Assembly (NCBI GenBank): GCA_963931155.1
Contig: OZ006978.1
Coordinates: 1,300,692-1,364,691, forward strand
Source: an uncultured Clostridia bacterium
Lineage (GTDB): Bacteria; Bacillota; Clostridia; TANB77; CAG-508
DNA length: 64,000 nucleotides
Direction of reading: 5' to 3'
The notes below the pieces were generated by a model. That model did not search any database, had not been told where the DNA came from, and saw only the letters and a list, made by a program, of their open reading frames with translations. The position numbers were made by a program, and so were the translations under genes. Shown here piece by piece: positions 5,556 to 58,142 of this stretch; positions within the stretch are counted from its first letter, which is position 1; each line of letters begins with the position of its first letter.

Positions 5556-5673
5556 TTTATTGTGGTGGGCGTTTGGCGTTATAGGCTTAAACGTCCATTT
5601 GCGAGAAATTGATTTTTAAAAACGGCTAATTAAATAGCACAAAAATTAGTAAGTAGCTTGTATAATGTGCTTT

Positions 5674-5745
5674 TGTCAGTTTTAGGGACAGGCTCTTTTC
5701 TGCCAAGTTTGTCAGCTTTGGGGACAGGCTTCAATCTACAAAATT
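5674..5745 (+). repeat. two tandem copies of a ~36-bp repeat unit (tgtcaNNtttNgggacaggctc...tgccaaNtt)
   Basis: Direct repeats read in the rpsO-pnp intergenic region. Same family as the array at 15051-15278. Confidence 0.6.
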
Positions 5746-5882
5746 TATAATTTATTGCTATGGACAAAAAATCAAAATATAACAAAAGCATAGTATAGAG
5801 GTTACAGCTAATTAAGGTGCTATTAATTAAATATAAAAAAGAAAGGAGTAGTATGATAATTTTATTATCATACAAATAGAAA

Positions 5883-15058: not shown

Positions 15059-15278
15059 AATGTCAGTTTAGGGGACAGGCTCTTTAGTGCCATTTATGTC
15101 ACTTTTAGGGACAGACTATACCTTAAATTTATCTATATCACTTTTAGGTAACAGGCTACTAAAAGAAAATCTATTATAACTGAGTAGAGCCTGTCCCCAT
15201 TGATGACAAGTCTGGCACAAAAGAGCCTGTCCCCATTGATGACAAGTCTGGCAGAAAAGAGCCTGTCCCTTTTGGTGA
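15051..15278 (+). repeat. array of the ~36-bp repeat: three forward then three inverted units, forming a long imperfect palindrome
   Basis: Units tgtcagtttaggggacaggctc... followed by three reverse-complement units gagcctgtccccattgatgacaagtctggca. Two of the reverse units are identical. Confidence 0.65.
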
Positions 15279-15307
15279 CAAGTTTGGCAAAAGCACTTGA
15301 AAAAAGT
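15279..15307 (+). terminator. rho-independent terminator
   Basis: Hairpin aaagcactt-gaaaaa-agtgcttttttc. Confidence 0.6.
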
Positions 15308-19411: not shown

Positions 19412-19500
19412 GAACAAAGCGACCTTGGTCGCCCTTTGTTCTTGCCAATTTGAGTATCCAACAGCAATGAGGAAATCTCAAAAGCAATGGTGATTATAAC
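19412..19500 (-). repeat. core of the interspersed MITE/PATE-like element (inverted orientation) with terminator-like hairpin
   Basis: Reverse complement matches the core found at 28544-28639 and 32672-32767. Hairpin gaacaaagcgacc/ggtcgccctttgttc immediately after the mutS stop. Confidence 0.55.
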
Positions 19501-27917: not shown

Positions 27918-27934
27918 GGAGGAATTTGTTATAT

Positions 27935-28471
27935 ATGTCTGATATAAAGGGTAAATATATGAAAATATTAGATGAATTAGAATCTAATATTAAAAATAAA
28001 GAAGATTTAGCTATAGCAAAAGAAAAATTCATGGAATTAACCGTAGTTTTTATGGATATAGTTGATAGATTGACTTTTTTAACAGATGAAAGAATAAAAA
28101 ACATTGAAGAAAAACAAGTAGAAATTAATAATAGATTAAGTAATGTACAGTCAATTGTAGATGGAATAGAAGAAGATATTTATGATGAGGAAGATGAAGA
28201 AGATGGTTATGAATTTGAAATAGTTTGTCCTTATTGTAATTACGAATTTACCACTGATATAGCAGATGAAGAAAGAAATGAAATAAAATGTCCTAAATGT
28301 AATAATATAATAGAATTAGATTGGAATACAGATGAAGAGTATGCTTGTTCAGGAGATTGCTCACATTGTCATGAACAGGTTGCAGAAGATAATGTAGAAT
28401 ATAACAAAAATTCTAAAAACAAGAAGAAAAAAGATGATAGTTCAGAAGCAAACAATGAAGATGATATGTAA
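27935..28471 (+). CDS. hypothetical protein with C-terminal CxxC zinc-ribbon motifs
   Basis: SD AAGGAGG. Motifs CPYCNYEF, CPKCNN, CSHCHE. Confidence 0.55.
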   Translation: MSDIKGKYMKILDELESNIKNKEDLAIAKEKFMELTVVFMDIVDRLTFLTDERIKNIEEKQVEINNRLSNVQSIVDGIEEDIYDEEDEEDGYEFEIVCPYCNYEFTTDIADEERNEIKCPKCNNIIELDWNTDEEYACSGDCSHCHEQVAEDNVEYNKNSKNKKKKDDSSEANNEDDM

Positions 28472-28474
28472 TAA

Positions 28475-28510
28475 AAAAGCTTAAAGATAAAAAATCTTTA
28501 AGCTTTTTTA
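28475..28510 (+). terminator. rho-independent terminator
   Basis: Stem agcttaaagat/atctttaagct followed by tttttt. Confidence 0.65.
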
Positions 28511-28511
28511 T

Positions 28512-28672
28512 GTAATAGGAAATTTCTCCGAAATTCCTATTACATAAAAAGGCTATAATCGCTATTGCCTTTGAGATTTCCTCCTTGACGTCGGAAACTC
28601 AAATCGGCAAGAACAAAGGGCGACTGCGTCGCTTTGTTCTGTAATAGGAAATTTCTCCGAAGTTCCTATTAC
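28512..28672 (+). repeat. complete MITE/PATE-like element: 32-nt palindromic hairpin + 96-nt core + 32-nt hairpin
   Basis: gtaataggaaatttctccgaaattcctattac at both ends. Core ends with gaacaaagggcgac-tgc-gtcgctttgttc. Confidence 0.6.
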
Positions 28673-28694
28673 ATAAAATGCTAAAAAATTTGAA

Positions 28695-29316
28695 TTAATC
28701 AAACAAAGTTAAAGGATTTATATATTCATCATTAATTCTTACTCCAAAATGAAGATGTGGACCAGTAGTTGCTCCATTAGTTGGATTTCCGTTTTCATCA
28801 TAATATTGATTGCCTTTAACCCCATAGACGTTTTTAGGACCAACATAACCAACAACTTGTCCCTGAAGTACAGAATCACCTTTTTTTACTATATAAACAG
28901 GAGAAACATGACAATATGTAAATTTCATATTATCTTTAGAAAGTGTAATAGTATAACCACCTCCACCTAAGAAACCTGTAAAAGTTATTATACCAGAAGT
29001 AACAGCGATAAGTTTGCTACCTTCAGGTGCACCAATATCTAGTCCAGAATGATATGTAGAAGCACCGAGATGTAGGTGAGGTTCTATAACCAAAATATGA
29101 ATTTATTGTAGTATATCCAGGAGAAGGCCATACATATCCAGAAGAACTAATATCCATTGATATAATAGAATTAGAAGAAGATGGTGAGATATAAGCTAAA
29201 GAAGAGTCAGACATAAAAGGTGTGAAAAACATAGAAATAAAAAGAACTAAACAAATTAAAAAAATCATTAAAAATTTAAAAGGCATAAAAAAACTATTAG
29301 ACATAAAAACCTCCAT
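28695..29316 (-). pseudogene. M23 family metallopeptidase, frameshifted
   Basis: N-terminal ORF (29023-29316) has the signal peptide and WPSPGYTTINSYFGYR. C-terminal ORF (28695-29093) has EPHLHLGASTYHSGLDIGAP and HLHFGV. Frame break at about 29090. Confidence 0.65.
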
Positions 29317-29349
29317 TGTAATCTAATAGCCCCCGATTATAATTGCTTT

Positions 29350-29874
29350 TTAATTATCATTTTTATTAGATTTAAAAGCAAAAAATTTACTAATAAAGAA
29401 ATTCAAAATAATTACTATTATTGTTATTAAACATTTACTAACTATTATAGGAAAAGGCGCATAATTAAATAGCAAAGTTCCACCAAAAGATTCAATAAAC
29501 ATTGTAAACAATCTTCCTAAAATAAATTTTGAAAATTCTATAAATTTTTCTCCAAAGCCTTGAGCTTCAGAATGAAAAACTAAATCTTTATTTGTAACAT
29601 AAGCAACTAATACTGCAAGAACTATTGCAATATTATTAGCTGAAGTAGAATTAATTCCAAAAAAAGTAGATAATACGTAAAAAGAACCTATATTGACTAA
29701 AGTGGTTAAGGCGCCAAAAACCACGTACAATATAACTTCTTTACTAAAAAGCTTTTGGCAAAAACTTTTTTTGAATTTTTTTTGTTCAATTAACTGATTG
29801 TTATCTAATTCGTTTTCGTTAGTTTTTTTTATATTATTAATTTTTGTATTTAAGTTTTTATTTAAATCTTCCAT
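29350..29874 (-). CDS. GtrA family membrane protein
   Basis: GtrA-like four-TM layout. Start trimmed to the internal ATG (MEDLN) because the longer ORF would overlap tRNA-Trp. Confidence 0.65.
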   Translation of the reverse strand: MEDLNKNLNTKINNIKKTNENELDNNQLIEQKKFKKSFCQKLFSKEVILYVVFGALTTLVNIGSFYVLSTFFGINSTSANNIAIVLAVLVAYVTNKDLVFHSEAQGFGEKFIEFSKFILGRLFTMFIESFGGTLLFNYAPFPIIVSKCLITIIVIILNFFISKFFAFKSNKNDN

Positions 29875-29885
29875 AAAAAATCCTT

Positions 29886-29961
29886 TGGCAGGGGTACTAA
29901 GATTCGAACTCAGACTTGTGGTTTTGGAGACCATCGTGCTAACCATTAACACTATACCCCT
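29886..29961 (-). tRNA. tRNA-Trp (anticodon CCA)
   Basis: Cloverleaf folded by hand: acceptor AGGGGUA/UACCCCU, D stem GUGU/GCAC, anticodon loop CUCCAAA, T arm CUGAG-UUCGAAU-CUUAG, discriminator G, CCA encoded. Confidence 0.9.
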
Positions 29962-30099: not shown

Positions 30100-30543
30100 T
30101 TACTTCTTCCAGAAGTAGAGCTGGAGCTTCTCCTCATCCACCTTGACGATGACCGCCAAGAAGCGATCGTCCTCGAACAAGAACGTGTTTGCCGCCTTGT
30201 CGTTGCAGACTTCCCAGTGGTCGTCCTTGAAGTAGACGCCAGGTATGGCGGTAGGGTTCAGCATGTCGAAGCACGACAGCTTAACCTTGGTGTTGGGATA
30301 ATCGCAGATGGGGGTCAAGACATGAATCGCCGTAGCGATCTCGATGCCCGTGGTGCCGGTCGAGCCGAGGAGTGCATCCACGACATAGGGGTCGCAGTTG
30401 TATGCACATGTGCCCTCGTCATAGACCATGTAGGCGGTCCGGCTGCCCAGAATAGCTAGCACCTTGTCGGTGTTATCACTCTTCCGAGCGTAGTGAGAGA
30501 AGCAGTTGTGAGGACAATAGCCCTCAGATTCGAACTTAGCCAT
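30100..30543 (-). CDS. hypothetical Cys-rich protein (CPHNC ... CAYNC), 147 aa, GC-rich
   Basis: About 53 % GC against a ~28 % background. Perfect SD AAAGGAGG 8 nt upstream. Own promoter and terminator. Confidence 0.6.
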   Translation of the reverse strand: MAKFESEGYCPHNCFSHYARKSDNTDKVLAILGSRTAYMVYDEGTCAYNCDPYVVDALLGSTGTTGIEIATAIHVLTPICDYPNTKVKLSCFDMLNPTAIPGVYFKDDHWEVCNDKAANTFLFEDDRFLAVIVKVDEEKLQLYFWKK

Positions 30544-30806: not shown

Positions 30807-31802
30807 ATGGATAATTTTATTATAGATGAATTTGAAAATTCAAAGCCACCAAGAAAAGAGGAAGGCAAAAAACAACATTCGCTTGAAGGCAAAAGAAGAA
30901 AAAGTATTATAACAATATTTGAACAATCTGGTGGATTAATAGGACCAGAAGAAATTGCAGATGCTTTAGATATTGATTTAGAATTAGTGAAAAGAATATT
31001 AGGAGTAAGGAGAATAGAACAATATGAAATATTAGTAGGTAAAAAGAAACCTACTATACCTAAAAGAGATCGTAGGAAAAAAGCGAATCCATCTGAAGAA
31101 AAAGAAGAAGAAAAGTTAGATAGAATTATTATTGAAAGAAATAAAGAAATATTTGAATTAAGTACTCAAGGAATGAGTTTAGCTGAAATTCATGAAAAAA
31201 CAGGAATAAGCATAGATTTATTAAAAGAAATATATATGTCTTTAGGATTAAATATATATACTGACGAGGAAATAGAAGAGATGAGAAGACAAGCTGAATC
31301 TGTTAGCCAAAATCCAAAAACAGTTATTGCGCCAGAGACTACTGAGAAAAGTGCGAGTGGAGTAAAAGGAGAGATAAAAGCAGATAGCAAAAAAATGGAC
31401 AGAGCTATAGATTTGCAAGAAGGTGGTAAAACTAAAGAATACGGAGAAAGCAGAGTTCAAGAAGAAGTGGATAGTGAAAAGGTAAGTTCAAAAGGAGATG
31501 TAGATGAGCAAGAAAATGGTGAAGAAGGAAATTCTAAAAATAAAGAACAAGAACTTGAAGAATTAAAAGCTAAAATAACAAGTTATGGAGACATTGGAAA
31601 AATGATAAAAGGATTTATAGCAGAGGGGAGAATTGAAGATGCAATAAAATATGGCAAATATTTTATGAACAATTCAGACTTTTTAACAAAAATAGAAAAA
31701 GATAATTTATTTGTTTTAATAGAATATATGAAATCAATAAAAACACAACATTTTCAACCACGTTGTATGGGAGAAATTTCAGATGAAGAAGAAATGAGAT
31801 AA
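30807..31802 (+). CDS. K/R-rich protein with two DeoR-like HTH modules
   Basis: HTH modules (SIITIFEQSGGLIGPEEIADALDIDLELVKRIL; EIFELSTQGMSLAEIHEKTGISIDLLKEI). C-terminal region similar to that of the 33308 protein. Confidence 0.6.
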   Translation: MDNFIIDEFENSKPPRKEEGKKQHSLEGKRRKSIITIFEQSGGLIGPEEIADALDIDLELVKRILGVRRIEQYEILVGKKKPTIPKRDRRKKANPSEEKEEEKLDRIIIERNKEIFELSTQGMSLAEIHEKTGISIDLLKEIYMSLGLNIYTDEEIEEMRRQAESVSQNPKTVIAPETTEKSASGVKGEIKADSKKMDRAIDLQEGGKTKEYGESRVQEEVDSEKVSSKGDVDEQENGEEGNSKNKEQELEELKAKITSYGDIGKMIKGFIAEGRIEDAIKYGKYFMNNSDFLTKIEKDNLFVLIEYMKSIKTQHFQPRCMGEISDEEEMR

Positions 31803-31823
31803 AAAGTTGATTAAAAGCATATA

Positions 31824-31852
31824 ATTGACAATTTACATAAAACATACTATAA
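31824..31852 (+). promoter_or_regulatory. consensus sigma-A promoter TTGACA-17-TATAAT
   Basis: Exact consensus hexamers with 17-nt spacing, about 95 nt upstream of the GC-rich ORF at 31948. Confidence 0.6.
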
Positions 31853-31947
31853 TAAAGAATAAGCCTTAAAAGGCATAGTAGCAAGCATAAAAGTTAGGAG
31901 GACAACCTAGTAAGGTTTGTAGTATTGAACAGTAAAAAAGGAGAAAA

Positions 31948-32475
31948 ATGAGTAGTGTAGTTGTGAGGTTTAAAGAGGAGATGACTTTTCCTCACGTAGA
32001 AGATGCAGGTAAAATCAAATGGCGGGGAGGTTATATCCTAGATGATGTCACAGGAATCCTGGAAGGATACATCGAGGAAGACATCAATGGGGTTCCCGCT
32101 GATGAACAGCGCCGTGCATGGATTTTAGGAATTTGCAAAGGTGCTAGATGGTGCTTCAACTGGTTCGGAAGTAAGAACTTTGACTTCCCTATCACAATCA
32201 GATTCTTTGATGGCAATTTGAACGAGGGAATTCTAGTAGCACTAGGGTCGAAAGACGATAGAAACATTGATATGATTGAAGTCGGCTATTCGACTATTCA
32301 AGCGACAAGACTATCCGGAGAGTGCACAGAAGCAAAAGAAGTAATCAAGAGCATCGTTGAAGATATTAAGGACAGTATCTATCTCCCTGAATTTGACATA
32401 ACAGCTATTGCCCTAAATGATATTGATAATTGGGCTAAATCCTACTACCGACGGAAGACGGGACGTCCTTGGTAA
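31948..32475 (+). CDS. hypothetical protein, 175 aa, GC-rich, no recognised family
   Basis: About 43 % GC. Strong SD AAAAGGAG. Followed by a cctcctttttaggagg hairpin. Confidence 0.6.
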   Translation: MSSVVVRFKEEMTFPHVEDAGKIKWRGGYILDDVTGILEGYIEEDINGVPADEQRRAWILGICKGARWCFNWFGSKNFDFPITIRFFDGNLNEGILVALGSKDDRNIDMIEVGYSTIQATRLSGECTEAKEVIKSIVEDIKDSIYLPEFDITAIALNDIDNWAKSYYRRKTGRPW

Positions 32476-32551
32476 CTAACGGTGCTAACAAAAAAAGAAC
32501 AATGTTCTTTTCCTCCTTTTTAGGAGGTTTTTCTTTTTGTCTTTTTAATGA

Positions 32552-32767
32552 TATAATAGGAATTCCTTCTTATAGTCGGAAACCTAAATTGGCAAGAACA
32601 AAGAACAAGGTTGCCCCCTTGTTCTTTGTTCTTAGTTCTGTAATAGGAAATTTCTCCGAAATTCCTATTACAGAAAAAGGCTATAATCGCTATTGCCTTT
32701 GAGATTTCCTCCTTGACGTCGGAAACTCAAATCGGCAAGAACAAAGGGCGACTGCGTCGCTTTGTTC
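32552..32767 (+). repeat. MITE/PATE-like element: diverged core + 32-nt palindrome + full core, abutting the ssrA 3' end
   Basis: Same hairpin and core as at 28512-28672. The partial core keeps the terminal stem through covarying changes. Confidence 0.6.
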
Positions 32768-32782
32768 AAATCAAAATGTAAT

Positions 32783-33142
32783 TGGTGGAGATGAGGAGAG
32801 TCGAACTCCTGTCCAATAATCCTTCCACATGAACTTCTCCGAGTGCAGTTTGTTAAAAAAATTCCCTAAAAAGAAATTAACAAACAAATTTGTTTTTTAG
32901 GTAGTCAAATAAATACCCTTCATTCCTATGACACGGAAATAAATTCGTTTCCCACATATATGACGTTTTATCTAAAGCTGTGGGGAGCTAAAGAAAAACG
33001 AGCTACTAATCTTAAGCAGCGTAAGCTAATTCTTTATTATCAGCGTTTATATTTAAATTTCGCTTTTTTATAGTGGCCAAAGCGACCATCCACTACTCGC
33101 TATTCATACTTCTGGGTTATTGTCGAAACCAAATACATCCCC
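32783..33142 (-). ncRNA. ssrA: tmRNA (ssrA)
   Basis: On the - strand: 5' GGGGAUGUAUUUGGUUUCGACA, 3' GGAGUUCGACUCUCCUCAUCUCCACCA (T-arm and acceptor). Internal tag ORF reads ...GCU GAU AAU AAA GAA UUA GCU UAC GCU GCU UAA. Confidence 0.9.
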
Positions 33143-33307: not shown

Positions 33308-34768
33308 ATGCCAACTAAATTAGATGAAACAGGAGATAGAAGAAAACAAATATTAGAATTATTAAACGAACAAGGTAGAACTATAGAAGAAGTTTATACT
33401 TTTTTTAGTAATGTACCTCATAATGTAATTGAAAGGGATATAAGATATCTTATTAGAAATAAATTATATCAGCCATATAATATAATATTGAGTAGAAAAA
33501 TAGAAAATGATAATAGTAGAAGTGGAGAAAAAACAGATACAAATAGTGAAACTGAAGGCAACGTTGAGAACACAGAAAAAGAAGATAATTTAACAAGACA
33601 AGGAAGACGACCAACAAGAAGGAAAAAAAAGAAATCACCATTTGATGCTAAAACAAGAAGAGAGAAAGTATTACAAAGATTAAAAAACACTTTAAAAACG
33701 CAAGAACAAATTGCATCAGAATTAGGAGTATCAAAGGGAGTAATTTCTACTGATATACAATTTTTTATAATAAGTGGAATTATAACACCAGAAGAACATA
33801 AAACTAGAAAAAAACAAATAAAACAATTGGCTAAACATAAAAAATCACCCCAAATAGAACAAAGAAGGAAGCAAATATTAGAGTTAATACATAGTACAAA
33901 TATGACACAGAAACAAATAGGAAAAGAAATAGGTTTATCGCAAACAGCGGTTTCGAAAGAAATAAGATATTTAGTAAGTATGGGATTAATATCACAAGAA
34001 ACTTTGGAAAATAGAAAAAAACAATACAAAAGAAATAAAAAAGTAAGAAGTATTACACCAAAAAAGAAAAAAGAGCGAAAAGCATCGAATATGAAAAGAA
34101 AGAGAATAGGGCAAGTGTTGTATTTAATAAAAAATAAATATATGGCTCAAAGTGAGATAGCTGTATTACTAGGAGTATCAAGAAAAACTATATGTAAAGA
34201 TGTAGAATACTTAGTGGAAACAGGTATGCTAAAAAAAGAAGAAGTACAAAGTGCGGCAAAAAAAAGAGTACAAATAAGAAGAACAAGAGTAATTGAATTA
34301 ATAAGAAGAGGAAAATTACCTAAAGTTTTAAGAAAGAGTATTGCAGAAGAATTAGGTGCTGGAACAGCTACTATTTCTGTGGATGTAAAAGTTCTAATAG
34401 AGCAAGGTTTGATTGAAGAAGACGAAAAAGGAGAGTTAAGAGTAGTAGAATCTAAGATTGCAGAGAGTGAATTACTATCAGATGCATTATATTTAGAACA
34501 ACAAGAACAAGAGGAAGATAGTTTAAGTATGACTTCAGAAGAAAAAGAATGTTTATTGATGATGTTTAGACAAATAAGAAAATTGTCATTTGGGGGAAAT
34601 TTAGATAAGGCAATTAGAAATCTAGGATTGGTAAAAGAAATGTTTGGTTTTTCTAAAGAAAAATTAAAACAATTAGAAGATATAGAAAGTTTTTTAAGAG
34701 AAGAAAGCAATAAAAAACAAAAAAATGCTGACAGAAAAGCATCTGGAGAGGAGATAGGAGATAGATAG
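33308..34768 (+). CDS. protein built from five tandem DeoR-like winged-HTH modules separated by K/R-rich linkers
   Basis: Repeated R(R/K)KQILEL(L/I)... followed by HTH (TQEQIASELGVSKGVISTDIQ; TQKQIGKEIGLSQTAVSKEIRYL; AQSEIAVLLGVSRKTICKDVEYL; SIAEELGAGTATISVDVKVL). Confidence 0.65.
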   Translation: MPTKLDETGDRRKQILELLNEQGRTIEEVYTFFSNVPHNVIERDIRYLIRNKLYQPYNIILSRKIENDNSRSGEKTDTNSETEGNVENTEKEDNLTRQGRRPTRRKKKKSPFDAKTRREKVLQRLKNTLKTQEQIASELGVSKGVISTDIQFFIISGIITPEEHKTRKKQIKQLAKHKKSPQIEQRRKQILELIHSTNMTQKQIGKEIGLSQTAVSKEIRYLVSMGLISQETLENRKKQYKRNKKVRSITPKKKKERKASNMKRKRIGQVLYLIKNKYMAQSEIAVLLGVSRKTICKDVEYLVETGMLKKEEVQSAAKKRVQIRRTRVIELIRRGKLPKVLRKSIAEELGAGTATISVDVKVLIEQGLIEEDEKGELRVVESKIAESELLSDALYLEQQEQEEDSLSMTSEEKECLLMMFRQIRKLSFGGNLDKAIRNLGLVKEMFGFSKEKLKQLEDIESFLREESNKKQKNADRKASGEEIGDR

Positions 34769-34832
34769 ATTGTGTTTTATGTGAAATTGTGGTAAAATAT
34801 AATATAGGTACCCAAACATTGGAGGTATTACA

Positions 34833-35300
34833 ATGGAAGATCTGGAACTGGCAAATGTGGTTCTGGAAACAGTCCAACCGTGTGACGATGCAGAAGAGTT
34901 CTTCTACATCGCACAAGAAGGAGGTGTTAGAGAGTACGTCGGATTCATGTATCCAACTAGTCTGGAAAAGGCACGAGAAATCTTGGAGTTCTTGTGCGAT
35001 ATGAGATTCGAGTGCTTCAAGATTGTTGAGGAAGATACAGGTGACATGGTCGGAATCATTTTCGGCGACCCCCTAACCAGTACTATACTGGATGTTTCAT
35101 ACTTCATCGGTGATGAGTATCGATGCATGGGGTACTGCTCATCAGCTGTACGGCAGTTCGAAGAGTATCTGAGGGAGGAGACTTGCTACACAACCATGAG
35201 ATTCTTCGTAAGAGAAGATAACGCGGAGTCTCAGGGCGTGATGAACAAGCTTGGAATCCCTAATGCTTTCGGCAATGTCTACATGCTCGACCTTGACTAA
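34833..35300 (+). CDS. GNAT family N-acetyltransferase, GC-rich
   Basis: About 47 % GC. GNAT motifs (VGIIFGDP, YFIGDEYRCMGYCSSAVRQFEEYL, EDNAESQGVMNKLG). SD GGAGG and a TGG-extended -10. Confidence 0.7.
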   Translation: MEDLELANVVLETVQPCDDAEEFFYIAQEGGVREYVGFMYPTSLEKAREILEFLCDMRFECFKIVEEDTGDMVGIIFGDPLTSTILDVSYFIGDEYRCMGYCSSAVRQFEEYLREETCYTTMRFFVREDNAESQGVMNKLGIPNAFGNVYMLDLD

Positions 35301-45459: not shown

Positions 45460-45571
45460 GCCAATTTAACGAAAAATTATTTTAAATTACTTGACAATTT
45501 GGCTTAAAAAAATTATAATAAAATATTGTTAGATACCTAACAATATTTGGGGGTGATGTAAAATAGAAAGC

Positions 45572-45997
45572 ATGAATATAGGGAGAAGTATTCATATATT
45601 ATCAAGGCAAATTAAGAGAAAAATAGATGAAGCGGTCATTAAATACAATGTTACGTCTGTTCAGTGTGGTTTTATAGAATATATAAGTTATGAAAGTAAA
45701 AAGGGAAATGTTTATGCAAAAGACATCGAAAAAAAATTTAATATGCGAAGAGCTACTGTAGCAGAGATTCTTAGCTTGATGGAAAAAAATGGATTAATAG
45801 AAAGAAAGTCAAATGAGCAAGATGCTAGATTAAAACAAATTATTTTAACAAAAAGGTCATTGGAAATTAAAAATAGTATAAAAAAAGAAGTAAAAAAAGT
45901 AGAAAAATTACTAAGAAAAGATTTTACAGAACAAGAACTAACTAATTTTATGAATATATTGAAGAAAATGTCTGACAATTTAGAATGTAAAGTATAA
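45572..45997 (+). CDS. MarR family transcriptional regulator
   Basis: 141-aa winged helix with a MarR signature. Upstream of the ABC exporter pair. Confidence 0.8.
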   Translation: MNIGRSIHILSRQIKRKIDEAVIKYNVTSVQCGFIEYISYESKKGNVYAKDIEKKFNMRRATVAEILSLMEKNGLIERKSNEQDARLKQIILTKRSLEIKNSIKKEVKKVEKLLRKDFTEQELTNFMNILKKMSDNLECKV

Positions 45998-54245: not shown

Positions 54246-54515
54246 TTGACATAATGTGCTTATATAAGTTATAATATGAATTGTATTTAAATAAACAAAA
54301 ACATAAATGAGACAAAGTAAAATAAGGGTTGTTTACAGAGAGGAATAGTTATAAGCTGAAAGCTATTCTAAATAAATGTATTTGAAAAACTACCTCATTG
54401 TTTCTAGAAAAACTAGACGTATGCTTGCGTTAAAAGTTAATTAAGTTAAATAAAGGGTGGAACCGTGTATAAAAAAGCACCCCTCTAATAGTTACTATTA
54501 GAGGGGGCTTTTATA
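54246..54515 (+). promoter_or_regulatory. promoter (TTGACA-18-TATAAT) and T-box riboswitch leader (Thr specifier) of thrS
   Basis: AGAGA stem I motif, specifier region aaaaACUAcc, T-box aaaGGGTGGaACCGtg, terminator agcacccctctaatag/ctattagagggggctttt. Confidence 0.7.
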
Positions 54516-54517
54516 TG

Positions 54518-54647
54518 TAATAGGAAATTTCTCTGAAATTCCTATTACATATAAAGGCTATAATCGCCATTGCCTTTAGGATTTCCTCCTTATAGTCGGA
54601 AACCTAAATCGGCACGAACAAATGGTGACTTCGACCTTTTGTTCTCC
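54518..54647 (+). repeat. MITE/PATE-like element (hairpin + diverged core) inserted between the T-box terminator and the thrS start
   Basis: gtaataggaaatttctctgaaattcctattac followed by a core of about 100 nt related to 28544-28639. Confidence 0.55.
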
Positions 54648-54678
54648 AAATAGATAAAATAAAGAAAGGATGATTATT

Positions 54679-56665: not shown

Positions 56666-57097
56666 ATGGTATATACTGAAGCAACTGAAAGAGCGATGAG
56701 AATCGCATATAATGCACATCATGGACAACTTGACAAATCAGGAGTACCTTACATTTTCCACCCTATTCATTTGGCAGAACAGATGGGAACGGAGGCGGAG
56801 TGCATTGTTGCACTTTTGCATGACACGGTGGAGGACACCGATGTGACCCTAGATGAGCTGTCAGAACAGTTTTCGAGCAGTATCATCGAGGCTTTGAAGC
56901 TTCTTACACATGACAAGTCTGTGGACTACTTCGACTATGTTAGGATGGTGAAGGACAATCCGATTGCAAGGAAAGTTAAGCTTGCAGATCTAAGACACAA
57001 TAGTGACATGTCTAGAATCAAAAATCCAACTGAAAAGGATTGGAGGCGTGCAAAGAAGTATCAAAAAGCGATTGAAATGTTGAATAGGGAGGAATAA
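56666..57097 (+). CDS. small HD-domain (p)ppGpp-hydrolase-like protein (small alarmone hydrolase, SAH-type)
   Basis: 143 aa aligning with the HD domain of the window's own Rel (HPIHLAEQ..., ALLHDTVEDT). GC rises to about 45 % after the first 100 nt. Confidence 0.8.
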   Translation: MVYTEATERAMRIAYNAHHGQLDKSGVPYIFHPIHLAEQMGTEAECIVALLHDTVEDTDVTLDELSEQFSSSIIEALKLLTHDKSVDYFDYVRMVKDNPIARKVKLADLRHNSDMSRIKNPTEKDWRRAKKYQKAIEMLNREE

Positions 57098-57230: not shown

Positions 57231-58142
57231 ATGAGGGTTACAGACACCCTGGAATTTCCTGATATGCAGGAAATTCTGGAAAAAGCGCACAACATCGATG
57301 ATGTTTGGACTGCGCTTATCGCATGGTTCAGTGAGGATCCAAACAACTTGGAGAAGGTCGCATGTGCGAACAAGCTCATCGAGTTTAACAACATGCGGAA
57401 TTCGGATCTGGTCATCAAGCTTGATCAAGATGTTCGTGAAATCAAAGATGTCCTTCGCGGGATATCCAGAAGATACGGACACACGATTACAGTGACCAGG
57501 CGTCAAAAGGCGCTCATTGGTGTCATCGCAAAGATGGTGATACTAATTCAGCGAGGTGAGAAACGAGGCACGAATGTGTTCTCCTCTCTTGAAAGTCTGA
57601 AAGACTTTATCGGCATTCGAATTGTTGCTCAGACTGGAAAGAAGGATACACCAAAAAGCCAGCAGATGGCTTACGACATCATGAACGAGGTGCTTAGGTT
57701 CCTTGTTGTCGACAAGAAGAACACTCTGTCTACGGTCACACAGGATCGCACGGTGCGAGAGCTGGATGGCATCTTGATTCCGAAGGAGTCTGGAGTTTTG
57801 GACGTCTTCAGGGACAACGTGAAGGACTACTTTTACTATGCCAAACCCAATGGCTACCAGTGCCTGCACGCTGTTCCCATGGGACCTGACCAGCAAACGG
57901 TCGAGATTCAGGTAAGGACTCAAGAAGCCGAAGTGCGAGCAGAGTATGCCGAGGCAACTAGCCATGAAGCTCACAGACTGCTTCGCTATGAAGACTTCGA
58001 GATTCCGGTCGACCTGTCTAGGGTCGACATCGAAGGTGTCACCTTGGTTGAATTCGAGGGCGAAACTTCGGTTCCTAGTGGCACCATCTACGATAGAGTC
58101 GGACTCGTTAGCTCGGTTGATCCATTGAACCTTTTGCGTTAG
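57231..58142 (+). CDS. RelA/SpoT-synthetase-domain protein (small alarmone synthetase / toxSAS-like nucleotide pyrophosphokinase), GC-rich
   Basis: About 48 % GC. Aligns to the Rel synthetase core: DFIGIRIVAQT (DLFALRILV), NGYQCLHAV (YQSLHT), EIQVRTQ...AEYAEA (EVQIRT...AEYGIA). Confidence 0.8.
   Translation: MRVTDTLEFPDMQEILEKAHNIDDVWTALIAWFSEDPNNLEKVACANKLIEFNNMRNSDLVIKLDQDVREIKDVLRGISRRYGHTITVTRRQKALIGVIAKMVILIQRGEKRGTNVFSSLESLKDFIGIRIVAQTGKKDTPKSQQMAYDIMNEVLRFLVVDKKNTLSTVTQDRTVRELDGILIPKESGVLDVFRDNVKDYFYYAKPNGYQCLHAVPMGPDQQTVEIQVRTQEAEVRAEYAEATSHEAHRLLRYEDFEIPVDLSRVDIEGVTLVEFEGETSVPSGTIYDRVGLVSSVDPLNLLR

Follow-up and report, generated by a model that had tools for sequence, protein, structure and literature searches.

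A GC-rich single-gene cassette with conserved atypical codon usage in an AT-rich uncultured Clostridia lineage

Results

A GC-rich gene keeps its composition between species

We analysed a stretch of 64,000 nucleotides (nt) from an uncultured Clostridia bacterium (lineage TANB77; CAG-508; GenBank assembly GCA_963931155.1, contig OZ006978.1, positions 1,300,692 to 1,364,691), hereafter the window, whose own coordinates are used throughout. Our subject is a gene at 31948-32475 (forward strand, ATG start) that encodes a protein of 175 amino acids (aa) and is far richer in G+C than the genome around it. The atypical codon bias of this gene, the target, is conserved in its ortholog from another species, and the same holds for two further genes of the window, a Cys-rich orphan (ORF147) and a Rel-like gene; we infer that the conserved bias is under selection. 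On balance, we give an even chance to the reading that the target is a native, long-resident, autonomously expressed single-gene cassette, whose atypical codons are kept by gene-specific selection and do not betray a recent import.

A preliminary description, made from the DNA letters, had singled out this open reading frame (ORF) as GC-rich. Its GC content is indeed 42.4 % (0.48, 0.38 and 0.41 at the first, second and third codon positions; GC1, GC2 and GC3), compared with 28.8 % for the whole window. Across 55 non-overlapping ORF calls in the window, the median GC3 is 0.14 (interquartile range 0.13-0.17), and once five outliers and two short ORF calls within repeat arrays are set aside, the ceiling is 0.22. 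Regionally, GC content is 0.18 in the promoter and intergenic sequence, 0.33 in the leader (5' untranslated region, UTR), uniformly 0.40-0.49 along the ORF, and 0.31 in the terminator. The rise coincides with the coding region, as the preliminary description had it, but the step that it placed at the ATG is slightly less sharp, the leader already standing above the promoter.

The closest relative outside the species is a homolog of 52 % identity in the metagenome-assembled genome (MAG) BRZ_PP_bin61, another uncultured Clostridia (locus L001). Between the two genes, 60, 48, and 109 differences fall at the first, second, and third codon positions, with a proportion of nonsynonymous differences (pN) of 0.30 and a saturated proportion of synonymous differences (pS). 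Against a 94 % identical variant, the ratio of nonsynonymous to synonymous substitution rates (dN/dS) is 0.43. Because substitutions are codon-periodic and the protein has stayed conserved past synonymous saturation, the target is a real protein-coding gene under purifying selection. Copies of the 0.72-kb cassette within the species hardly differ, except that three short contigs have a second haplotype of ~97 % nucleotide identity.

These same features (codon periodicity, a conserved protein, and saturated synonymous sites) make it extremely improbable that the GC-rich stretch is mainly a structured non-coding or dual-function RNA with an incidental ORF. It is true that structured RNAs appear as GC-rich islands in AT-rich genomes (the adjoining transfer-messenger RNA, tmRNA, is 36 % GC) and that the folding energy per nucleotide of the target is higher than that of host genes. 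However, neither the leader nor the ORF matched any Rfam family, even at E below 5, and we therefore rejected a riboswitch or known RNA in either. The minimum free energy of the ORF relative to synonymous-codon shuffles (z = -1.6 in the window, -0.04 in L001) gives no conserved extra structure. Selection for a specific mRNA structure inside the ORF was rejected as well, these z-scores being inconsistent between the orthologs.

In L001, the homolog has a GC3 of 0.43 versus 0.09-0.24 in 15 neighbours and is the only GC-rich gene there. We scored synonymous third positions at conserved residues as S (G or C) or W (A or T) and compared the window with L001. For eight neighbouring orthologs, the S/W mismatch was 0.203 versus 0.202 expected at independence, i.e., the states are fully randomised. 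Those of the target are randomised too (0.513 versus 0.473 expected). GC3 at conserved residues was nonetheless 0.40 and 0.37 in the two copies of the target versus 0.11 in the neighbours (Fisher p = 7e-17). A neutrally ameliorating import that predated the split would have reached the GC3 of the host, which the target did not; therefore, its high GC3 is stationary and gene-specific. No amelioration toward host composition is seen, with a GC3 over the whole gene of 0.41 and 0.43 despite the randomised synonymous states.

Five genes of the window depart from the genome's codon usage

The preliminary description listed three further GC-rich ORFs, starting at 30100, 34833, and 57231. All are present, and each is monocistronic with its own promoter and terminator. 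Its total of four fell short, since there are five GC3 outliers, the one at 56666-57097 having been missed. Five of the 55 window genes hence depart from the genome's codon usage. Besides the target, they are ORF147 (30100-30543, reverse strand; GC3 0.77), a GNAT acetyltransferase gene (34833-35300, forward; GC3 0.54), an HD_4 gene (small alarmone hydrolase-like; 56666-57097, forward; GC3 0.44), and a RelA_SpoT-domain gene (small alarmone synthetase-like, 303 aa; 57231-58142, forward; GC3 0.57). The set therefore comprises three stress or nucleotide-signalling types (RelA_SpoT, HD_4, and GNAT) and two orphans. The common single-gene layout of promoter, ORF, and terminator noted beforehand holds for them, each of the five cassettes being headed by a promoter of its own, of the TGnTATAAT or the consensus type, and closed by a hairpin terminator of its own.

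We next compared relative synonymous codon usage (RSCU). The five GC-rich genes correlate poorly with the host (r -0.52 to 0.34) and with each other (r -0.22 to 0.41; target versus ORF147, r = -0.05), whereas size-matched host genes correlate at r 0.83-0.89 with the host and 0.65-0.81 with each other. With codon signatures that do not correlate with one another, the five genes are unlikely to come from a common donor, and the shared origin that had been proposed for them is not borne out. The alternative offered alongside it, a dispersed functional set, is viable. The idea of a foreign origin is further undercut by the distribution of the target, whose exact protein has entries in 41 blocks of the assembly collection, contigs of up to 1.75 Mb included.

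What the five genes do have in common is a rise of NNC, ATC, CTN, and CGN codons and a near loss of two codons that dominate the host. TTA accounts for 1 of 71 Leu codons (63 % in the host) and ATA for 5 of 66 Ile codons (64 % in the host). In the target orthologs of the window and L001, respectively, ATA is used in 1/20 and 2/16 and TTA in 1/9 and 1/10 cases. The overall shift in composition is much milder: in the 4-fold boxes of the target, A-ending codons drop only from 0.65 to 0.44. From this shift, ATA and TTA would be expected at 0.45 and 0.47 in the target, as against the 1/20 and 1/9 observed. The shortfall beyond the 4-fold shift is found in both orthologs (P 1e-4 to 3e-2), and a similar one in the HD_4 gene, in four Rel-like genes, and, for TTA, in the GNAT gene of the window (most tests P < 0.02). 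The depletion therefore points to selection at the level of codons or isoacceptors and not to a uniform compositional push.

The same shortfall counts against a neutral process acting on the locus, be it a local mutational bias tied to very high transcription or, at recombination hot spots, GC-biased gene conversion; the codons would then have no selective role. Such a process would account for a GC rise that coincides with transcribed units and touches all degenerate classes to some degree, and the fast evolution of the ORF147 and GNAT proteins would suit it. But the rise is limited to the ORF, leaving promoter, UTR, and terminator at 18 %, 33 %, and 31 % GC, and falls mainly on third codon positions. 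Copies of the cassette within the species vary very little and show no mosaicism, and deamination of the coding strand would be expected to lower C and not to raise it. We regard a neutral origin of the bias as very unlikely.

High GC3 in the sister cassettes is likewise shared between species

ORF147, which like the Rel-like gene has a tighter synteny than the target, provides a second case. The family comprises five clusters, all within the same clade. The gene lies upstream of tRNA-Trp; in three species it occupies a syntenic place, bordered by the tRNA-Trp/GtrA side and by the next gene, with a GC3 of 0.77, 0.77, and 0.90. Its synonymous divergence (dS) is similar to that of its neighbours (0.60 versus 0.40-0.96), while its nonsynonymous divergence (dN) is raised (omega, i.e. 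dN/dS, 0.2-0.4); fast protein-level evolution is a trait that it has in common with the GNAT gene. The Muto-Osawa relationships link GC1 and GC2 to GC3. In L020, a sister species, ORF147 has a GC1 of 0.53, a GC2 of 0.33, and a GC3 of 0.90, and it is unlike a gene from a high-GC donor because its amino-acid composition is near that of the host despite extreme synonymous GC. The design of its cassette resembles that of the target, with a conserved TGgTATAAT promoter of the TGnTATAAT type, a 5' CCCCAAATGGGG hairpin, AAAGGAGG, and a GC-rich terminator. Kinship between the two proteins was rejected (hhalign probability 0.1 %), and the AlphaFold model of ORF147 (predicted local distance difference test, pLDDT, 50) is too poor for interpretation.

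In four species, the Rel-like gene comes immediately after ThrRS; its GC3 there is 0.57, 0.48, 0.35, and 0.32, versus 0.09-0.14 in the flanking genes. In the window, the HD_4 and RelA_SpoT genes adjoin each other after ThrRS, both GC-rich; none of the three related loci examined has the hydrolase gene after ThrRS. Together, the two genes may form an alarmone module or one of the toxSAS/antitoxin-like kind. At the position of the GNAT gene, another sister species (L017) has a GNAT gene with a GC3 of 0.31.

Native residence weighed against import

The obvious alternative is that the target, or the whole set, consists of recently acquired foreign genes from one or several moderate- or high-GC donors, inserted perhaps beside tmRNA or tRNA genes and not yet ameliorated. 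Atypical composition and single-gene units are what such a history would leave, and the target does lie 3' of the tmRNA gene and ORF147 beside tRNA-Trp. The tmRNA 3' end, however, is not duplicated: the last 24 nt of ssrA occur once in the window, with up to 3 mismatches allowed. No integrase domain was detected in the ORFs scanned between tRNA-Trp (29961) and the tmRNA (32783), namely ORF147, ORF331, and the target, or in the flanking ORFs scanned (27926-29952 and 33308-35300). Neither 5.8 billion protein clusters, nor 1.84 billion representatives, nor IMG/VR, nor the JGI metagenomes contained a donor homolog, and the only homologs belong to the same AT-rich clade. The mutually uncorrelated codon signatures, the synteny of the ORF147 and Rel-like counterparts in 3-4 species, the neighbour-like dS of ORF147, its nearly host-like amino-acid composition at a GC3 of 0.90, and the retention of high GC3 in genes whose synonymous S/W states are saturated between species all run counter to recent import, which we consider unlikely.

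Distribution and gene order can be read in both directions. Neighbouring housekeeping proteins give the relationship ((window, L020), L017), L001; for instance, the M24 peptidase of L020, L017, and L001 has 94 %, 90 %, and 66 % identity, respectively, to the window copy. In both the window and L001, the distance from efp down to the target is 3.6-4.0 kb, the two genes share a strand, and a block of efp, Zn-ribbon, and M23 genes precedes the target. This equal distance from efp is hard to square with recent import, and the 52 % identity of the two proteins falls inside the range of neighbouring orthologs (32-87 %). The L001 homolog is not near the tmRNA gene. Among GTDB species representatives, only the MAG already known, BRZ_PP_bin61, carries a target homolog; a scan of IMG/VR found no copy of the target or of ORF147, and a scan of JGI metagenomes by peptide patterns found none of the target. 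The other GC-rich ORFs are located on the same long contig as the target.

Several observations weigh against native residence. The target is absent from the equivalent locus in its closest sisters, L017 and L020, where a membrane protein of 203-205 aa is found instead, so that two losses must be assumed under vertical descent. The gene is known from only two independent lineages, and its immediate flanks differ between them. Its GC1, GC2, and GC3 would suit a donor of ~42 % GC, and a mid-GC donor alone would also give low ATA and TTA. The stationarity of the target rests on one species pair, together with the analogy with ORF147 and the Rel-like gene. For ORF147, parsimony polarisation gave an excess of GC-to-AT changes in the window lineage (15 versus 3), a direction in which the method is biased; the excess could reflect slow decay. 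Furthermore, the structure model of the target, built from 3 sequences, is of moderate confidence only (pLDDT 69.5).

For the target alone, the main rival is that two lineages imported it independently of each other, in both cases from an unsampled donor of ~42 % GC, a history favoured by the patchy distribution and the differing flanks. Against it stand the efp-linked position, the failure of the searches above to find a donor, the stationary composition, and the behaviour of the sister cassettes. A further hint of mobility, the differing downstream context of the cassette in loci L012 and L015, was rejected. These assemblies switch genomic context inside a dispersed repeat, which therefore marks an assembly or rearrangement junction.

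The cassette carries strong expression signals

The target is preceded by a sigma-A type promoter (31823-31853, forward strand) with a -35 box TTGACA (31825-31830), a 17-nt spacer, and a -10 box TATAAT (31848-31853). It matches the consensus at 12/12 positions, so the exact-consensus promoter reported in the preliminary description stands, as does the strong Shine-Dalgarno (SD) sequence, AAGGAG at 31938-31943, ahead of the ATG. Sites of the form TTGACA-17-TATAAT number 2 in the 64-kb window versus 0.01 expected from shuffles. The second (45491-45519) lies upstream of a MarR-family regulator gene (45572-45997), and the two promoters have TTGACAATTT in common. A 19-mer that includes the -35 box, AATTGACAATTTACATAAA (31823-31841), is identical in loci L001-L016, including that of the 52 % homolog, and has no further copy elsewhere in the window. 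It contains a 5-1-5 palindrome, AATTG-A-CAATT, a candidate operator judging from the letters. In the JGI metagenomes, the exact 19-mer has 77 matches, 0 of which have AGTTAGGAG within 140 nt downstream, and none of the matches inspected resembled the target cassette.

From the inferred transcription start, the 5' UTR is predicted to span ~88 nt (31860-31947). A 4-bp hairpin (31863-31874) begins ~4 nt into the predicted transcript and lies at an equal distance from the -10 box in both species, with compensatory changes at 3 of its 4 pairs (GCCU/AGGC versus GUUC/GAAC). Further downstream, an SD-like AGTTAGGAG (31892-31900), with no start codon after it, is invariant between the window and L001. 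The true SD is conserved in L001 as well. The whole leader is not unusually stable (z +0.3 to +0.5), and a globally structured leader was rejected on that basis. Downstream of the ORF lies an intrinsic terminator (32496-32538) composed of the hairpins AGAACAATGTTCT (32496-32508) and CCTCCTTTTTAGGAGG (32512-32527) and a T-tract; the stop region and the tandem hairpins are conserved at the DNA level in the locus of the 52 % homolog. Between the window and L001, the non-coding parts of the cassette are better conserved than the ORF.

Stem-loops at the 5' end and the STAB-SD of cry3A are known to stabilise mRNAs against decay in Bacillus, the 5' stem-loops of aprE and ermC being examples. The target would resemble these messages in having a hairpin a few nucleotides from its predicted 5' end and a strong 3' terminator, and its conserved SD-like AGGAG, ~50 nt upstream of the real ribosome-binding site (RBS) and followed by no start codon, would correspond to the STAB-SD. 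The target hairpin has only 4 bp, and the resemblance is one of sequence alone. Together, promoter, leader, and terminator suggest strong transcription and a stabilised monocistronic mRNA.

With such signals, the target might simply be very highly expressed and its codons optimised for translation in the ordinary way, those ending in C being the efficient ones of the host. The consensus promoter, the 5' hairpin, the strong SD, and the strong terminator fit this explanation, as do the rise of NNC from 15 % to 46-48 % in 2-fold Y boxes and of ATC from 7 % to 53-57 % of ATY. Yet the genes for EF-P, Asp23, and ThrRS, whose products are usually well expressed in Firmicutes, retain host-like usage (GC3 0.14, 0.13, and 0.17, respectively). 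G-ending NNR codons, CGN Arg codons, and rare Ser codons rise too (in ORF147, AAG is used 11/11 times), which to our knowledge standard optimisation in low-GC Firmicutes does not predict, and the five genes share no single preferred codon set. We think optimisation quite unlikely as the explanation.

The target protein founds an orphan family

The protein (175 aa, 20 kDa, pI 4.9) has no transmembrane or hydrophobic segment, signal peptide, or lipobox. A word-indexed search of 5.8 billion clusters returned only two related clusters, of 94 % and 52 % identity, and a full hidden Markov model (HMM) search of 1.84 billion representatives added nothing real; a 684-aa repeat protein with an E of 5e-4 in the latter was rejected as spurious. 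The best Pfam match, BRX_N, scored 16 bits, below the cut-off of 24.5, and the 52 % homolog does not have the same match. NCBIfam, PADLOC, and PHROGs gave nothing below E 0.08, and the best match among PDB sequences had an E of 0.16. The preliminary description could place the protein in no recognisable family, and neither could these remote-homology and family searches nor the fold searches below. The W/F-rich peptide to which it drew attention is present and is the best-conserved part of the protein. The target is an orphan family, specific to a clade of uncultured, very AT-rich Clostridia.

An AlphaFold2 model (pLDDT 69.5; predicted TM-score, pTM, 0.65) predicts 8 antiparallel beta-strands in an N-terminal domain (residues 3-122) and, after it, three helices at the C-terminus (127-171). 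Foldseek found no match at E <= 1e-3 in PDB or BFVD (best E 5e-3, TM-score at most 0.40). Below significance, the list is headed by the C-domain of NHBA (2lfu), LolA (2w7q), lipocalin-type PGDS (4ors), and AbyU-like cyclases. Up-and-down beta-barrel and half-barrel proteins of this kind share with the target the predicted eight-strand antiparallel meander, but they have no sequence similarity to it, and the target differs by the absence of a signal peptide or lipobox and by the extra C-terminal three-helix segment. As a weak guess from the model, the up-and-down beta-domain might have a small-ligand-binding or scaffold role.

Discussion

A possible role for the codon bias

In the mechanism that we propose for a native cassette, the consensus sigma-A promoter would give rise to a monocistronic mRNA with a 5'-proximal hairpin, an SD-like element, a strong RBS, and a tandem-hairpin terminator, and the predicted product would be a soluble 20-kDa protein with a beta-rich domain and a helical tail. 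Richness in GC at synonymous sites would arise from gene-specific codon selection, most clearly through avoidance of the host-dominant ATA (Ile), TTA (Leu), and AGA (Arg) codons, with a further component favouring NNC over NNT. The target would then be one of at least five codon-biased cassettes in the window, the others being ORF147 and those for GNAT, the alarmone-hydrolase-like, and the alarmone-synthetase-like protein. Such codon usage could make the set independent of the tRNAs on which translation of the bulk proteome relies, or it could stabilise the mRNAs; in either case, the set would be a codon-biased group for stress or defence. The three stress or nucleotide-signalling members fit a codon-biased stress role without proving it.

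A more specific and more speculative version, which we hold to be rather unlikely, is that a clade of Clostridia of 26-29 % GC maintains a 'codon-insulated' set. Its ORFs would be recoded off the decoders Ile2 (AUA), Leu (UUA), Arg (AGA), and other NNA decoders, so as to be translated still, or only, when those tRNAs are uncharged, undermodified, or inactivated (starvation, dormancy, or phage attack); the 175-aa protein would be a new stress or defence effector made from a very strong, stabilised transcript. The window itself contains one tRNA gene (tRNA-Trp, 29961).

The bldA/TTA regulon of Streptomyces is a dispersed collection of unrelated genes marked by genome-rare synonymous codons. As in that regulon, the genes described here form a dispersed, marked set, and, to judge from their codons, their translation could depend on tRNAs other than those of the bulk genes. 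The two systems are mirror images, however: in a GC-rich genome, the bldA-dependent set contains TTA, whereas here, in an AT-rich genome, the set avoids TTA and ATA. They differ, too, in that one or a few codons per gene are concerned in Streptomyces and the whole ORF is recoded here.

Three publications on codon-biased stress translation (PMC6307160, PMC1183508, PMC5066624) describe modification-tunable transcripts, selective charging of isoacceptors, and non-optimal codons that are favoured in starvation. The likeness to these cases is that genes of stress type (alarmone synthetase-like, hydrolase-like, and GNAT) lie off the bulk codon usage and that the strongest shifts occur at codons that switch isoacceptors (Ile ATA to ATY, Leu TTA to CTN, and Arg AGA to CGN). 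The bias seen here is far stronger (GC3 0.4-0.9 versus 0.14 in ordinary genes of the window) and is conserved across species, and codons read by the same tRNA (NNC versus NNT) shift as well. Keyword searches of the literature found no description of such a native codon-biased gene set.

The target also invites comparison with genomic islands at tmRNA and tRNA genes, on account of its atypical composition, its place just 3' of ssrA, and its variable presence. It differs from them in being a single 0.7-kb unit, for which neither an att duplication nor a donor was found, with no integrase domain in the scanned ORFs, and in a composition that is stationary over saturated synonymous divergence.

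Atypical composition is routinely read as the footprint of recent horizontal gene transfer; here, it is apparently a stable and probably selected property of a few native genes. If this is true genome-wide, the set would be a natural system in which to ask why selection keeps genes off the bulk codon and tRNA pool. Candidate reasons are mRNA stability, the control of dosage for toxic enzymes, and the need to translate while the cell is starved or its tRNAs are damaged. Composition-based island callers would then also have to be used with caution in extreme-GC genomes. With the target, an uncultured gut lineage of Clostridia gains a new protein family that is apparently strongly expressed.

Surroundings of the cassette

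The tmRNA gene (ssrA; 32783-33142, reverse strand) encodes the tag peptide ADNKELAYAA; the 3' end of the gene points toward the target cassette, with a copy of a dispersed repeat in between. Target and tmRNA are flanked by ORF331 (30807-31802), a fast-evolving gene that is 47 % identical to its L020 counterpart and has a weak sigma-70 region-4-like match, and by ORF486 (33308-34768), which has several tandem winged-helix/helix-turn-helix modules (MarR_2, HTH_11, and others); gene content here varies among sister species.

Two kinds of repeat are found in the window. One, at 15186-15293 and also at 5673-5766 and 15061-15117, has three head-to-tail 36-nt units AGAGCCTGTCCCCATTGATGACAAGTCTGGCA... 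with inverted relatives ~100 nt and ~9.5 kb away; no CRISPR-like spacers were seen among these repeats, and local GC is raised. The other is the modular dispersed intergenic repeat mentioned above (~70-210 nt; 28495-28700, 32557-32767, and 54500-54645, and inverted at 19428-19498). Upstream of ThrRS (54500-54669), where Rfam at the gathering threshold gave no T-box leader, there is a copy of this repeat instead. The dispersed repeat is built of a palindrome, GTAATAGGAAATTTCTCCGAAATTCCTATTAC, and a terminator-like hairpin, GAACAAAG...CTTTGTTC.

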